Positions 4,577-42,941 of a stretch of 58,632 bases of DNA are shown in pieces. How positions within the stretch are numbered: position 1 is the first letter of the stretch; each line of letters starts with the position of its first letter. Below the pieces are notes generated by a model, which did no database searches, had not been told where the DNA came from, and was given only the letters and a program-made list of their open reading frames with translations. The DNA is from Patescibacteria group bacterium (GTDB lineage Bacteria; Patescibacteriota; Minisyncoccia; Phycocordibacterales; SBAW01), in the NCBI GenBank assembly GCA_019752125.1, contig JAIEMM010000005.1:1-58632 (forward strand). The letters are read 5' to 3'. A program made the translations under genes and the position numbers.

Positions 4577-4649
4577 TGGACCCTACCGGGATCGAACCGG
4601 TCGCCTCCTCATTGCAAATGAGGCGCTCTACCAAATGAGCTAAGGGCCC
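4577..4649 (-). tRNA. tRNA-Ala(TGC)
   Basis: GGGCCCTTAGCTCATTTGGTAGAGCGCCTCATTTGCAATGAGGAGGCGACCGGTTCGATCCCGGTAGGGTCCA; cloverleaf, G3:U70 pair, CCA not encoded. Confidence 0.97.
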
Positions 4650-30369: not shown

Positions 30370-31656
30370 ATGAAAAACCCTGGGGAGCAGATATGGGACG
30401 TGTGCGTTATAGGAGGCGGCCCTGCCGGCATGATGGCGGCTATTAGCGCGGCCGAACTTGGCGCCGAAGTCATCCTTATTGAAAAGAACGCTACGCTTGG
30501 CAAAAAACTCCTTATAACCGGTGGCGGACGCTGCAATGTCTGCAACGCACAGGAAGATGTACGAAAACTGCTTTCAAAATTTAAAGGCAGCGATAAATTT
30601 CTTTTTTCAGCATTTTCTCAGTGGGCTACGAAAGAAACGTTGGACTTTTTCCATTCGCACGGCATGGAAACAAAAGAAGAAGCACTGATGCGTGTATTTC
30701 CAGCAAGTAATACAGCGCAGTCAGTATGGGATGTATTGGTATCAGACCTTAAAAAATATTCTGTAACAGTACTTTCAAACTCCCCCGTCGTACATATGGA
30801 GAAAGAAGGAGAAGAGATTATCTCTGTAACACTGAAAACCCCCACAAAAGGAGCTCGCGGGGCAGGTAAAGAAATTCGGGCAAAAAAATTTATTTTGGCA
30901 ACAGGCGGCAAATCACGCCCAGAAACAGGTTCAACTGGTGATGGGTATGAGTGGTTAAAAGAAATTGGCCACAACGTTACTGGAACAAACGCTGCACTAG
31001 TGCCCGTAGAAGTTAAAGATTCGTGGGTAAGGAAACTTGCAGGTGTGAGTGTGCCGGAAGTAAAAATCAGCATCTTTCAAAACGATGTAAAGCAAGATTC
31101 TAAAATTGGGAAACTACTCTTTACTCATGTCGGCGTAAGCGGCCCCACTATTTTAAATATGAGCCGTGATATTGGAGAGCTTTTGAAATATGGAGAAGTG
31201 GTGCTTGAAATAGATTTCTGCCCAACCCTCGCCTACGATGCGCTCAATACGAAGCTCCAAAAAATATTTGCTGCGAACGACAAGAAGAAACTTAAAAATA
31301 GTTTGGCTGATGTACTTCCTTCAGCGGCTGTTCCAATACTTTTAGCTGAAGTAGATATTGATGGCGAGACGCCATGCAACAGCGTTACACGCGAGGTACG
31401 CCTTTTGCTTATGAAAGTACTTAAACACGCTTCTATGGAAGTAACCAAACTACAGGGTATGGAAAAAGCGGTCATTACCTCCGGCGGTGTCGTTCTTGAA
31501 GAAGTAGATTTTAAAACAATGCAGTCGCGCCTTTTCCCTAACCTCTATCTCATTGGAGATATATTAAATGTAGACAGGCCGTCCGGCGGCTACAGCTTGC
31601 AGCTGTGCTGGACGACAGGACACGTCGCCGGCACACACGCAGCAAAATACTTATGA
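30370..31656 (+). CDS. HI0933/BaiN/YhiN-family flavoprotein
   Basis: GGGPAGMMAA, GKKLLITGGGRCN, ATGGKSRPETGSTGDGY, LFTHVGVSGP, GGYSLQ. Confidence 0.92.
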   Translation: MKNPGEQIWDVCVIGGGPAGMMAAISAAELGAEVILIEKNATLGKKLLITGGGRCNVCNAQEDVRKLLSKFKGSDKFLFSAFSQWATKETLDFFHSHGMETKEEALMRVFPASNTAQSVWDVLVSDLKKYSVTVLSNSPVVHMEKEGEEIISVTLKTPTKGARGAGKEIRAKKFILATGGKSRPETGSTGDGYEWLKEIGHNVTGTNAALVPVEVKDSWVRKLAGVSVPEVKISIFQNDVKQDSKIGKLLFTHVGVSGPTILNMSRDIGELLKYGEVVLEIDFCPTLAYDALNTKLQKIFAANDKKKLKNSLADVLPSAAVPILLAEVDIDGETPCNSVTREVRLLLMKVLKHASMEVTKLQGMEKAVITSGGVVLEEVDFKTMQSRLFPNLYLIGDILNVDRPSGGYSLQLCWTTGHVAGTHAAKYL

Positions 31657-31690
31657 AAAGAAAAACCGCCAATCTCGAAAGATGGCGGCG
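31657..31690 (-). terminator. Intrinsic terminator of the rRNA-like RNA
   Basis: CCGCCA-TCT-TTCG-AGA-TTGGCGG-TTTTTCTTTT on the minus strand. Confidence 0.8.
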
Positions 31691-31701
31691 AAGAATGAGG
31701 T

Positions 31702-31990
31702 GAGGAACTTGGTTTAGGCTTAGAAGATTTAACGCTCCCGAGACGCTGACCGAGAGGTCAGTTCTCTGGCGGAACTTGGCTGCACCTAACGGCTTAACCT
31801 ATGTCTCCCATATTCTCCATGAGCTGTTACCACTCATAGATACTCGAATCCAACCGCGACCCTTTTCATACGGGGCTGTAACCCTCTGTGGCGCTACTTC
31901 TCAGAAGCTTTTTATAAGGTCTTTGGTGGCCTTGGCCCACTCCAGCCGATTTCTCAACCGGAATCTCGTTTGATTTCTTCCTCGTTCCTC
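31702..31990 (-). ncRNA. Stand-alone ~290-nt RNA resembling 23S rRNA domain I (about H12/13-H22)
   Basis: Ordered LSU motifs AAGAAATCAAACGAGATTCC, GCCACAGAGGGTTACAGCCCCGTA, GAGTA-stem-GAATATGGGAGA, AAGCCTAAA; helices kept by compensatory changes; GAGGAAC/GTTCCTC closing stem; own promoter and terminator. Confidence 0.8.
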
Positions 31991-31997
31991 TGAGTGG

Positions 31998-32026
31998 AGT
32001 CTACACCTAGAAAATACTGGTTGCAA
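31998..32026 (-). promoter_or_regulatory. sigma70-type promoter of the rRNA-like RNA
   Basis: TTGCAA (32026-32021), 17-nt spacer, TAGACT (32003-31998); predicted +1 at about 31990-31991. Confidence 0.7.
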
Positions 32027-32046: not shown

Positions 32047-33180
32047 TTAATCGACCTTAAATAGTCGTTGATATTTTTTATCTTTTCCTTTGCGCCATGC
32101 GGCAAGCAGATACCCTGACATAAAACTCATAACAAAGCCTGCTCCGCCAAAACCAGCCGAAAGAAAAATTGGTTTGCCGGGCACTTTCCCAATGTACGGC
32201 ACGCTACGTTTTGTAGGAAAAAAGATTCCACTCCAACCACCTTCGTGTTTGTGCGATGCGTCGATCCCAAGCACAGTGCGAGAAAATGTATGCAAACTGG
32301 TGTGATATTTTTCTTCTGTGTTTTTATTTTTTTGATACTGTGCCTCCTGTATATCTTCGCCTCCTACCCACAAGCGGTTCCCGCCGAAGCTCCGTATGTA
32401 GTGGTACGGGCGCTCAATGTCCGAAGACACCGACGAGCGAAACAGCTTCTTCATGTTGTTCTTTTTATAGGAAAGTACAAACGTACGGATACGGCCAACA
32501 TGTTTTGCATACTGAGGCAACAAGTCGAGACCACCTGTGGCAACAATAACTTCTTTGCACGATATAACGTTTCCATTTTCCAAATGCACCTGCGCAACTG
32601 TTTTTTGGGTAGCGATTTTTGAAACAGGCGCATTGTATGTGATGCTGCCACCATGTTTTTGTATTCCACGTTTTAATGCCTTCAACAGTGCCTGGTTGTT
32701 TGACTGGCCTTCATCTACAATGGTCAGGGCAGAATAAAAGTTTGGGTGGAGTGCGCGTGCATCTTCAGTAAACGTAACGTTAGCGCCAATTTTTTTATAC
32801 AATTCATATTTCTTCCTGAGTATCTCTCTCCCGCGCTCGTGTGTGCTCACAATATGTCCAGGCAGACGACGCGTCTCAAAATGAACCTCCCCTTTTCTAT
32901 GTGCAAACGCCTCAAGATGCTTGAACCCCTCTTCTGAAAGATTCCATATATCGCGTGCACCTGCGAGGCCAAACTTTTTCAGCACATACTCCCAATCTAT
33001 ATCTGCATCGTGATTCATCTCTGCTGTGGAAGCGAAGCTCGCGCTTTCTGTACCGGCACCCTTTTCAAACACTGCGACAGAGTATCCGTCTAACAATAGA
33101 TGGTACGCCGCAGACAACCCGGCAATACCGGCCCCTATCACAACCATGTCGTATATCTTTGTATCCTGATCCATTTTCAT
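32047..33180 (-). CDS. FAD-dependent oxidoreductase (DAO/PuuB-like)
   Basis: VVIGAGIAGLSAAYHL, VIVATGG, GFGGAG. Confidence 0.85.
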   Translation of the reverse strand: MKMDQDTKIYDMVVIGAGIAGLSAAYHLLLDGYSVAVFEKGAGTESASFASTAEMNHDADIDWEYVLKKFGLAGARDIWNLSEEGFKHLEAFAHRKGEVHFETRRLPGHIVSTHERGREILRKKYELYKKIGANVTFTEDARALHPNFYSALTIVDEGQSNNQALLKALKRGIQKHGGSITYNAPVSKIATQKTVAQVHLENGNVISCKEVIVATGGLDLLPQYAKHVGRIRTFVLSYKKNNMKKLFRSSVSSDIERPYHYIRSFGGNRLWVGGEDIQEAQYQKNKNTEEKYHTSLHTFSRTVLGIDASHKHEGGWSGIFFPTKRSVPYIGKVPGKPIFLSAGFGGAGFVMSFMSGYLLAAWRKGKDKKYQRLFKVD

Positions 33181-33187
33181 GGAGCTT

Positions 33188-34657
33188 TTATTTATCCAAA
33201 TCTAGAACTTCGTCCATACGAATTTTCTCTACGAATTCTGGGACGTGTGAGACAAGAACCATCGCACCTTCATATTTATTGAGAGCTTCAGCAATAACAG
33301 GAATATGGCGGAAGTTTATATGGTTGGTTGGTTCGTCGAGAATAAGAAGGCCTGGGCGGAGCAACATCAAGCGCGCAAAGGCAACGAGACCCTTCTGCCC
33401 CTCTGAGAGATTTCCAATCTTTGCATAGACAAGGTCGCCAGTGATCAAGAAGCGTGCAGCCATGCGGCGCAGATCTTCCTCAATAAGTTTTTCCATTACC
33501 GCACCAAGCTCTTGGTAGACGGTTTTATCAAAATCCAAGTTCGAGAAGTCTTGGCGGTAATACCCCACACGAGTGCCTTCCAAAATAGTTGTTCCCTCTG
33601 CTGTACCGTTAACAATACTTTCAAGGAGAGTCGTTTTACCGATGCCGTTAGGGCCTCTCAAAAGGAGGTGCTGATTTCTCTTAAGTTTTATTTCTGCCTT
33701 ACGCTTTGTCTCCTTACCATTCTTTATTGTTTTAAAGCTGGTGATAGTAAGAATGTCGCCGATCAAATCTGGCTGTGATGGAATGACAAAGGGAGCAATG
33801 GTGCGGTCTTCTTTGCGCACATCAACAATCTCCTCTTCAAGCTCTTCTGCTTTTTCGCGCATGCGCTTTGCCACCATACGCATCTGGCCTCCCTTGTTCG
33901 CAAAGAAGTTAGCTTTGTCTTTATTTTCTTGAATCTGCTTTGCGAGGAGTGCATTTGCGCGGTTTTCTTTTTCAATACGTATTGTGATTTCCTTCACCAC
34001 GTCAAAATAGTTACCGACATACTGCTCTACCTTGTGTGTATGTACGTCCAAGTACAGAACTCCTTGTGTAAACGAGTTTAGGAATTCTGCATCGTGAGAA
34101 ATGACGATAACTGTCTTCTTATATTCCTGGAGGAATTTCTTGAGGTGGTCGATACCCGCCTTGTCGAGATTGTTTGTAGGCTCGTCCAAAAGCAAAAGGT
34201 CCGGGTCTTGTATAAGCGCAGAGGCAAGGAGAAGACGCGCCTGCTGTCCACCAGAAAATGACTTAATGATACGGTCATGGTCTGGGATGCTCAGATTTAC
34301 TGCATCAAGCACCTTGTCGATGCGTGGGTCGATATCGTACTTCTTTTCTGTAAACATCTTCTGGAAAAAATCACGGATGGTGAGTTCTAGGTCAGGACGA
34401 GGAATAACTTGGCGAGCTGTTGCTACGCTCATTCCCTCTTCGACAATAATCTCTCCTTCGGCTGTATCTGATGAATCCAAATCAAGTTCGCCTGTAAGCA
34501 ACTTAAACAAGGTGCTCTTACCTGCACCGTTCTGCCCCATGAGGGTAATCTTCCCACCACGGCGCACATTGAAGCTCACCTCATCAAGGATTTTCTTTTT
34601 TGGTCCGAAGTCGAAAGACACCTCTTCGAACCGAACTATAGTATCGCCCTTAGCCAT
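33188..34657 (-). CDS. ABC-F family ATPase (ribosome-associated)
   Basis: Two ABC domains (GQNGAGKST/SGGQ/LDEPTNNLD; GPNGIGKTT/LDEPTNH), helical linker, no TM. Confidence 0.9.
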   Translation of the reverse strand: MAKGDTIVRFEEVSFDFGPKKKILDEVSFNVRRGGKITLMGQNGAGKSTLFKLLTGELDLDSSDTAEGEIIVEEGMSVATARQVIPRPDLELTIRDFFQKMFTEKKYDIDPRIDKVLDAVNLSIPDHDRIIKSFSGGQQARLLLASALIQDPDLLLLDEPTNNLDKAGIDHLKKFLQEYKKTVIVISHDAEFLNSFTQGVLYLDVHTHKVEQYVGNYFDVVKEITIRIEKENRANALLAKQIQENKDKANFFANKGGQMRMVAKRMREKAEELEEEIVDVRKEDRTIAPFVIPSQPDLIGDILTITSFKTIKNGKETKRKAEIKLKRNQHLLLRGPNGIGKTTLLESIVNGTAEGTTILEGTRVGYYRQDFSNLDFDKTVYQELGAVMEKLIEEDLRRMAARFLITGDLVYAKIGNLSEGQKGLVAFARLMLLRPGLLILDEPTNHINFRHIPVIAEALNKYEGAMVLVSHVPEFVEKIRMDEVLDLDK

Positions 34658-42870: not shown

Positions 42871-42941
42871 TGCCCGATCGTCTAATGGTAGGACAGCGGC
42901 CTTTGAAGCCGTTAATTGGGGTTCGAATCCCTGTCGGGCAG
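42871..42941 (+). tRNA. tRNA-Gln(TTG)
   Basis: TGCCCGATCGTCTAATGGTAGGACAGCGGCCTTTGAAGCCGTTAATTGGGGTTCGAATCCCTGTCGGGCAG cloverleaf. Confidence 0.95.

Follow-up and report, generated by a model that had tools for sequence, protein, structure and literature searches.

The window analyzed here is a stretch of 58,632 nucleotides (nt), positions 1 to 58,632 of the forward strand of contig JAIEMM010000005.1, from a Patescibacteria group bacterium (GenBank assembly GCA_019752125.1; GTDB order Phycocordibacterales, SBAW01) whose genome, G000, is assembled in 14 contigs totaling 702 kb, with 98.9% completeness. On the minus strand, in a 390-nt intergenic gap that runs from the stop of a convergent flavoprotein gene (31656) to the stop of a DAO-family gene (32047), lies an element with a 289-nt RNA body (31702..31990) that looks like a subdomain of 23S rRNA domain I. 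Comparison with a second copy, which we found in another species of the same genus (genome G069), makes it very probable that the element is a real functional RNA gene. Our reading of the whole is that it is an accessory, selected RNA gene that mimics the assembly nucleus of the 50S subunit and probably binds the ribosomal proteins (r-proteins) uL4 and/or uL24; we offer this reading tentatively, at a little under an even chance.

An earlier reading of the DNA, made without database searches (the sequence-only reading) and on the whole supported by our analysis, had described an RNA unit starting with GAGGAAC and ending with GTTCCTC, and these boundaries can be read directly from the sequence at 31990 and 31702. 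The two ends form a 7-bp closing stem (31984-31990 with 31702-31708) that is identical in both copies. The motifs quoted in that reading, AAGAAATCAAACGAGATTCC, AAGCTTCTGAGAAGTAGCGCCACAGAGGGTTACAGCCCCGTA, GAGTA-TCTATGAG...CTCATGGA-GAATATGGGAGA, and TCTTCTAAGCCTAAA, were all located on the minus strand where it had placed them, and its claim of collinearity with 23S domain I was borne out by profile searches and by helix-by-helix threading from helix 12 to helix 22 (H12 to H22). A nucleotide profile of domain I, built from the 23S genes of 12 relatives, gave its sole significant match in the 702-kb genome at 31865-31911 (E = 3.3e-4). Searched against the 289 nt alone, the Rfam large-subunit (LSU) model LSU_rRNA_bacteria (RF02541) matched over model positions 251-470 with 29.5 bits (E = 1.8e-7), and the G069 copy scored 33.8 bits. 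Both scores are below the RF02541 gathering score of 50 bits; a genuine 23S fragment of comparable extent from a metagenome contig, used as a control, scored 156.8 bits. The match is reciprocal, in that covariance model R1, built on the element from both copies (338.2 bits on G000 and 327.7 bits on G069), matches at its H19-H20 region in 51 of the 86 other family genomes, all places that were checked being real 23S, and the real 23S of genome G082 aligns end to end with the element architecture. These matches indicate a homology to 23S domain I that is real but remote.

No existing Rfam family matches the element over its full length; the sequence-only reading had known of no described family for it. 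Over the window, Rfam at the gathering score detected only two tRNA genes, at 4577-4649 (minus strand, 65.8 bits) and 42871-42941 (plus strand, 61.7 bits). At E ≤ 10, searches of a 901-nt region and of the element alone returned the LSU model (for the element alone) and chance-level matches only, with GOLLD, ROOL, OLE, HEARO, and raiA unmatched. Annotation pipelines would miss the element because it falls below the rRNA gathering threshold and matches no noncoding RNA (ncRNA) family.

Threading on the Rfam structure of a 23S rRNA from the same genus placed H12, H13, H14, H18 (short), H19, H20, H21, and H22 in collinear order and retained the U-A pair bracketing the subdomain. H11 is absent, and the 7-bp stem closes the whole. 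Inside it are an H12-like 2-bp hairpin (31966-31973) and an H13-like hairpin with a GAAA tetraloop (31941-31962), which threading confirmed to be the plain GAAA-capped arm of the earlier description; the GAAA loop is kept in G069, where the apical stem differs. The H18/H19/H20-like three-way junction (31850..31929, RNA positions 62-141) is the counterpart of the 23S fragment that binds uL4 and uL24. It is also the best-kept part of the element: it aligns to the LSU model with high posterior probability, and it is this region, R1 model positions 85-132, that real 23S genes match. The junction residues and the GAGUA and AAG.CUAAA motifs are retained from 23S. GAGUA is followed by an H21-like hairpin of 9 bp with a 7-nt loop unlike the 23S consensus (31816..31845 together), and then by an H22-like stem (31805-31809 with 31722-31726, within 31722..31809) that carries an element-specific insertion of ~76 nt (31728-31803). 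The long-range H14-like helix pairs GGGC (31935-31938) with GCCU (31716..31719), the third pair being flipped relative to the Rfam consensus. The recasting of AGCC/GGCT as GGGC/GCCT in the earlier reading is compatible with this provisional pairing, four of four pairs being standard in both copies (G.U in G000, A-U in G069).

Other universal features of 23S rRNA are absent from the element: the H13 loop motif, the consensus loops of H21 and H22, and two bases of the conserved AGGAAaAGAAA strand. We considered whether the ~76-nt insertion derives from another rRNA region and rejected this, since comparison with other rRNA regions gave no significant match. The idea that the helices are strongly reduced relative to 23S held in part. 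It applies against the expanded 23S of this genus, but ordinary metagenomic 23S genes have similar spacings: a pattern scan of metagenomes returned at least 116 stretches, the 80 loci retrieved from among them were all within real 23S genes, and the motif spacings in these genes are 79-80 and 24-26 nt, versus 74 and 23 nt in the element.

The element stands apart from the 23S genes of its carriers. As the sequence-only reading had noted, no rRNA sequence flanks it; its neighbors are protein genes, and the real 23S genes are on other contigs. We therefore rejected a genuine 23S gene or fragment, given the protein-coding flanks and scores below the gathering threshold. In G000, only the 3' part of the 23S gene was assembled, at the start of contig C12, and because its 5' half is unassembled, domain I of the host was judged by a proxy, genome G035, whose 23S is 97.9% identical to that of the host over the 437 nt that they share. 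Domain I of G035 is normal (model positions 15-565, 420.7 bits). Near-identity of the element to the host 23S was looked for and not seen, the similarity to the G035 proxy being 78.6% across just 42 nt. In the second carrier, G069, a complete 23S (model positions 1-2925, 2359 bits) is present on another contig alongside the element, so that the main 23S keeps the segment in G069 and, by proxy, in G000. Given these genes, the hypothesis of a split 23S, with the element as a piece encoded apart and incorporated into the ribosome, is hardly credible. The unassembled 5' half of the host 23S, whose domain I is unread directly, speaks for it, but it is refuted in G069 by the complete gene, and the normal domain I of G035, the missing H13 and H22 loop motifs, and the 2-nt deletion in the AGGAAaAGAAA strand argue against it as well. 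As a side observation, comparison with the G035 23S reveals ~209 nt inserted in the host 23S (contig C12, 438-646), near model position 2035-2046.

The second copy was found by BLAST with a 1.5-kb stretch, from the ABC-F gene to the flavoprotein gene, against 80 genomes of the genus. It lies on contig C1 of G069 (119528-119871), and is 73% identical over the entire unit, with no similarity beyond it; BLAST of the element itself against 60 relatives returned nothing beyond a 39-nt match to 23S. The earlier reading had made homologs a test of its proposal, and this one conserves both the boundaries of the unit and compensatory changes within it. The conserved block extends from the -35-like box (TTGCAA in G000, TTGCAC in G069) through the terminator T-run, and the DNA outside it is unalignable. 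Identity between the copies is uneven. It is highest at the two ends, with 88% from the closing stem to the H13 base (positions 1-34) and 95% at the 3' end (AAGCCUAAACC plus closing stem), and reaches 85% in the proximal insertion (33 nt), 76% from GAGUA to H22, and 75% in the H19-H20 core. It drops to 30% at the H13 apex, 26% in the H18 3' strands, and 19% in the middle of the insertion, which has been replaced. No coding potential was detected: stops occur in all frames, the copies differ by indels of 2, 2, 2, 9, and 2 nt, and no frame is kept.

One reading of such a sequence is that it is a nonfunctional relic, a captured or duplicated 23S fragment in decay. A relic would fit the presence of the element in only 2 of 88 family genomes, its loss from close relatives, and an LSU score under the gathering score. 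It would not fit the degree of conservation. The adjacent ABC-F genes of G000 and G069 are 82.8% identical in protein and 75.4% in DNA, so that the noncoding unit, at 73%, is about as conserved as adjacent coding DNA, with outer flanks that are unalignable. The unit is also an exact structural subdomain, with H11 removed, a closing stem added, and promoter-like boxes and a terminator conserved, and its pairing has been kept by compensatory change (see below). We consider a relic very improbable. The narrower proposal of a decaying rRNA pseudogene was rejected on the same pairing data, on the 42-nt extent of the similarity to the proxy 23S, and on the conservation of the unit in a second species.

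The fold was tested with 68 base pairs, taken from the 23S-structure threading and from three element-specific hairpins, on the uncorrected MAFFT alignment of the G000 and G069 copies. Standard pairs occupy 94.1% of the 136 cells. Six pairs have changed on both sides with pairing kept (four in H18 and two in H21), nine have changed on one side with pairing kept, and eight cells are unpaired (two in G000 and six in G069). In a control in which the 3' partners were slid by 1 to 3 columns, 37.1 to 57.0% of cells were paired, with zero or one double change. G069 alone, as an independent figure, pairs 62 of 68. We read some of its unpaired cells as misplaced indels in H18/H19; the stems pair in the numbering of G069 itself. 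The H18 strands are 26 to 61% identical between copies, yet mostly still paired, and all nine H21 pairs, including the two changed on both sides, are standard in both copies. The minimum free energy (MFE) of the body is -95.1 kcal/mol in G000 (z = -2.77; 2 of 200 shuffles fold as well) and that of the G069 copy is -88.7 kcal/mol (z = -3.77). Together, these comparisons indicate that the fold is conserved between the two copies.

The 3' third is more complicated. CCAAGTTCC is present twice in the G000 RNA (positions 212-220 and 279-287), the internal occurrence being retained in G069. Either CCAAGTTCC copy could pair with the 5' strand of the closing stem, and an AAGCC motif is duplicated too. 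Part of the 3' end may have been duplicated to give the insertion, and the RNA may alternate between two folds. Because alternative partners exist, the fold of the 3' third, including the H14-like pairing, is provisional.

The body is framed by putative transcription signals. The -35-like box TTGCAA (32021..32026, minus strand) is where homology between the copies opens, and TTGCAC stands at an equal distance from the RNA start in G069. The -10-like box TAGACT (31998..32003) follows 17 nt past it, 7 nt ahead of the RNA start; its G069 counterpart, TACGAT, follows after 16 nt, so that both copies have a -10-like box at 16-17 nt with the RNA start 7-8 nt beyond. TAGACT resembles TATACT, a word enriched 5- to 8-fold just upstream of start codons in G000. 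Downstream of the body come an 11-nt single-stranded 3' tail, ACCUCAUUCUU (31691..31701), which is unpaired in the MFE fold and matches G069 except at about its last base, where the alignment puts a 2-nt gap, and then a terminator-like, imperfect GC-rich hairpin with a T-run (31656..31690) that is almost identical in G069 and absent from G035. This T-run directly adjoins the stop codon at which the convergent flavoprotein gene ends. In G069, the -35-like box begins ~5 nt past the ABC-F stop, whereas in G000 a DAO-family gene lies upstream; the conserved block starts at this box despite the differing upstream gene. The comparison therefore suggests transcription from the element's own promoter.

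The same layout invites a reading in cis, in which the block and its terminator form a 3'-end module that ends the ABC-F (and DAO) mRNA or stabilizes it against 3' exonucleases, the rRNA ancestry being incidental and without a role in trans. In both carriers, the element lies behind ABC-F and shares its strand; in G000, the stretch from DAO to the element showed no terminator, and in G069 the ~5 nt from the ABC-F stop to the element hold none, so that ABC-F transcripts must enter the element there. Even so, we regard this reading as unlikely. Four relatives (G035, G015, G066, and G075) do without such a module, having ~7 nt between the convergent genes; a stabilizer would need neither conserved 23S-junction residues nor a single-stranded tail nor promoter-like boxes; and the conserved block opens at the -35-like box regardless of the upstream gene.

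Searches beyond the two carriers returned mostly real 23S. R1 matched 53 of 88 family genomes at E ≤ 0.01 (one of these genomes, G382, enters the family counts only), and all matches other than those in G000 and G069 scored ≤32 bits, at about model positions 85-132. Two candidates were set aside: a full-length match of 25.1 bits on contig C9 of G082, which is the real 23S domain I of that genome, and a second match in G062, which at 16.1 bits is weak and unconvincing. Among 401 sampled genomes of the order searched by BLAST, four matched, namely, G000, G069, and two with short matches to the core (39-50 nt). With the covariance model, 89 of 151 sampled order genomes matched, and the five best other loci (in G204, G190, G186, G174, and G198) were all rejected as lying in 23S genes, that of G190 having only its downstream side aligned. 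A phage collection had no match to the element, a plasmid collection had two 44-nt matches to the H19-H20 core region, and viral contigs had zero matches to three patterns; a phage, plasmid, or viral origin was dropped, these collections having given nothing relevant.

The history of the locus was read from a tree of ABC-F with 13 rows (G000, G069, and the 11 relatives with a full-length ABC-F in the fetched loci; other relatives were left out). G000, G069, G035, and G015 fall in one clade with support of 100/99. In G035, whose ABC-F is 98.8% identical, and in G015, the ABC-F and flavoprotein genes converge ~7 nt apart without the element, and R1 finds only real 23S in both; the convergent genes of G066 and G075 are likewise ~7 nt apart. 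The simplest history is that the element stood behind ABC-F in the ancestor of the clade, was lost in G035 and G015, and had DAO inserted later upstream of its promoter in G000; exchange by recombination between close species is possible. This distribution points to an accessory gene carried by two species of a four-species clade. A recent joint insertion of DAO and the element, which we had considered, was dropped after the G069 copy and the ABC-F tree indicated that the element is older at the locus.

DAO in G000 is a rare accessory gene and probably a later insertion. Clear orthologs were found in 3 of 79 other genus genomes (~54% identity) and in 1 of 300 sampled order genomes (46%), and none of these adjoins an element. 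A scan of genome contigs gave one further locus, in a Saccharibacteria metagenome-assembled genome (38% identity), where the contig ends at the gene. DAO as a traveling partner was rejected, since orthologs elsewhere lack the element and G069 has the element without DAO. Its best NCBIfam matches are weak (ThiO, 61 bits, far under the cut-off).

What the RNA might do is suggested by the part that is best kept. One study gives nt 281-359 of Escherichia coli 23S rRNA (H18/H19/H20) as the minimal fragment binding uL4 and uL24, and those two only (PMC6426284). In another account, domain I and uL24 nucleate 50S assembly and form first, uL4 follows, and H11 and the H21 loop contact other domains in the ribosome (PMC9935924). 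The loss of H11 and the changed H21 loop would fit an RNA that does not need to dock into the ribosome. As the most likely mechanism, we propose that the RNA, transcribed from a promoter of its own or else cut from the 3' end of the ABC-F mRNA, would offer through the conserved junction the surface to which uL4 and/or uL24, proteins of early 50S assembly, bind. By binding free r-protein in trans, it would either buffer or soak up that protein or sense how r-protein and rRNA are balanced, following the principle of the r-protein leaders that mimic rRNA but as a free-standing RNA. That the element acts through uL4/uL24 is possible, though short of likely. The fuller proposal, of a free-standing paralogue of the 50S assembly nucleus that serves as a trans buffer or checkpoint for early assembly proteins, co-expressed with ABC-F and next to bipA, is rather doubtful. 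The neighborhood does hold ribosome-associated genes (ABC-F, BipA, and a SpoU-type methyltransferase), which is weak evidence in a genome of only 0.7 Mb. The uL4 and uL24 genes are on contig C2, away from the element.

An alternative hypothesis is that the RNA is a decoy that would titrate or misdirect a factor other than an r-protein. The target would be something that recognizes this stretch of 23S, for instance a helicase, a nuclease or toxin, an assembly factor, or a factor from a phage. The structural evidence is the same as for an r-protein mimic, the patchy spread recalls conflict-related genes, and the ribosome-associated neighbors would suit a decoy too. No toxin or modification enzyme directed at H18-H22 is known to us, however, no defense or toxin genes occur in the neighborhood, and the phage and viral searches were empty; a decoy therefore seems to us distinctly unlikely.

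The element could also act in cis as an r-protein-sensing attenuator, with uL4 binding setting read-through into the PHA-granule-like gene and bipA that follow on the same strand in G069. An rRNA-like uL4 site followed by an intrinsic terminator is the layout of the S10 leader; according to PMC10931766, binding of uL4 to that leader is outcompeted by a 23S fragment with its site, and the leader works with a Rho-independent terminator. We judge this hypothesis quite improbable: in G000, a 1.3-kb gene on the opposite strand separates the terminator from the PHA-granule-like gene and bipA; in G069, the interval from the terminator to the next start codon holds a TATACT-type box; we identified no competing anti-terminator pairing; and the downstream genes are not r-protein genes.

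Several observations weigh against the element being a selected mimic of the assembly nucleus that binds uL4 and/or uL24. The other 86 family genomes yielded no copy, all R1 places checked in them being real 23S, and none appeared in 397 (BLAST) or 150 (covariance model) more sampled genomes of the order. Its absence from the sister genomes G035 and G015 indicates that it is dispensable. No dedicated partner marks the carriers, because uL4 and uL24 are single-copy everywhere examined; a search for extra copies in the carriers found none, and the genes are single-copy in carriers and noncarriers. The covariation, drawn from two sequences, has little statistical power, and the slid controls favor the threaded structure because that structure was defined on G000 and the 23S model. 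RNAalifold picks other partners for some 3' motifs, and AGCC/GGCU pairing, with the sequence of true 23S H14, is possible in G069. The promoter and terminator proposed by the sequence-only reading hold as sequences, with the boxes TTGCAA-17-TAGACT and the GC-rich hairpin plus T-run in place, but not as calls, since a simple consensus scanner called neither the promoter (8 of 12 matches, under the cut-off) nor the terminator.

The assembly is sound at the element. Contigs from two runs of one study span the junction between the flavoprotein gene and the element with zero differences and no variants listed in the element, and a run from a second study also covers it. Contigs of runs X1 and X2 both end at 31990-31995, at the 5' end of the RNA body, with a depth of ~5-7; such ends could arise by chance where depth is this low or from branching of the assembly graph.

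The genes around the element differ between its carriers. In G000, the ABC-F ATPase gene (33188..34657, minus strand) is the upstream neighbor common to both, and the DAO-family FAD oxidoreductase gene (32047..33180, minus strand), which sits between ABC-F and the element in G000 only, starts 7 nt past the ABC-F stop. The HI0933-type flavoprotein gene (30370-31656, plus strand) converges with the element. Its 3' end (31640-31656) is unlike that of G035 in its last codons and stop, and the protein is 2 residues longer; the change coincides with the T-run of the element, and the two converging units share their last bases. Neither DAO nor the flavoprotein gene is present at the G069 locus; downstream on the same strand come a PHA-granule-like gene and then bipA.

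We also considered an anti-Shine-Dalgarno role for the ACCUCAUUCUU tail. The canonical anti-Shine-Dalgarno core is CCUCC. The 16S rRNA ends in ...GUGGAACAAUUCAAAUG in G035 and in ...GUGGAAUCAUUCAAUU in G069, without this core, and the G000 assembly contains no 16S. Shine-Dalgarno-like words are not enriched upstream of 436 long open reading frames (ORFs) in G000 (GGAG, 6.7% versus a background of 5.6%), and the role was rejected on these two grounds. Words resembling a -10 box (TATACT, ATAAT, and TGCTA) are enriched 5- to 8-fold at positions -20 to -3 of long ORFs in G000, which suggests that its mRNAs are mostly leaderless.

The element would matter for several reasons. It appears to be a separate gene that keeps the fold of the rRNA subdomain where large-subunit assembly begins, and it occurs in bacteria with minimal genomes, where spare noncoding DNA is rare. 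If it binds uL4 or uL24, it would represent a new way of coupling r-protein supply to assembly, and it would give structural and single-molecule studies an assembly nucleus that is excised in nature and folds by itself. If trans action on assembly proteins is true, the element would be new in category. Under the fuller proposal of a free-standing paralogue of the assembly nucleus, it would be the first mimic of a whole rRNA subdomain to be encoded in trans, and a natural minimal model of the first step in large-subunit assembly. Even without a mechanism, it suggests that rRNA segments can duplicate and gain an independent life. To our knowledge, the regulatory RNAs known to mimic rRNA do so only in short stretches of r-protein mRNA leaders, and a search of open-access literature yielded no described stand-alone rRNA-subdomain RNA.

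One known system close to the element is 23S rRNA (RF02541) itself, with which it shares the collinear helices H12, H13, H14, and H18-H22 of domain I, and from which it differs in not being embedded in an rRNA gene, in the absence of H11, in its replaced loops, and in the ~76-nt H22 insertion. Fragmented rRNA genes, such as those of apicomplexan mitochondria, likewise encode short, separate rRNA-homologous RNAs (PMC10948144), but their pieces replace a continuous rRNA and enter ribosomes, whereas the element coexists with a complete 23S. Bacterial Y RNAs, which are tRNA-like, resemble it as free-standing ncRNAs that imitate part of an RNA of the translation machinery (PMC4201824); their template is tRNA and they have a dedicated partner gene, Ro60, whereas no dedicated partner gene was found for the element. 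Set beside type I small RNAs derived from 3' untranslated regions (UTRs), it has promoter-like boxes that are conserved in position and no terminator before it, with a promoter that the scanner left uncalled. The r-protein leaders (E. coli S10/uL4, and also those with uL1, uS8, and bL20 sites) are alike in being extraribosomal RNAs that mimic the rRNA site of an r-protein, and they are the known RNAs that the element would most resemble in its action. With the S10 leader in particular, it has in common the H18-H20 junction as the 23S region concerned and an intrinsic terminator after it, and the resemblance to an rRNA site that is expected of such a leader is present at its H18/H19/H20 junction. 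Its position is not that of a leader, with ABC-F or DAO upstream and a flavoprotein gene (G000) or a PHA-granule-like gene (G069) downstream. Those leaders are short, lie in the 5' UTRs of r-protein operons, and are only locally rRNA-like, whereas the element is ~290 nt long, has promoter-like boxes of its own, and is homologous to the whole subdomain from H12 to H22.

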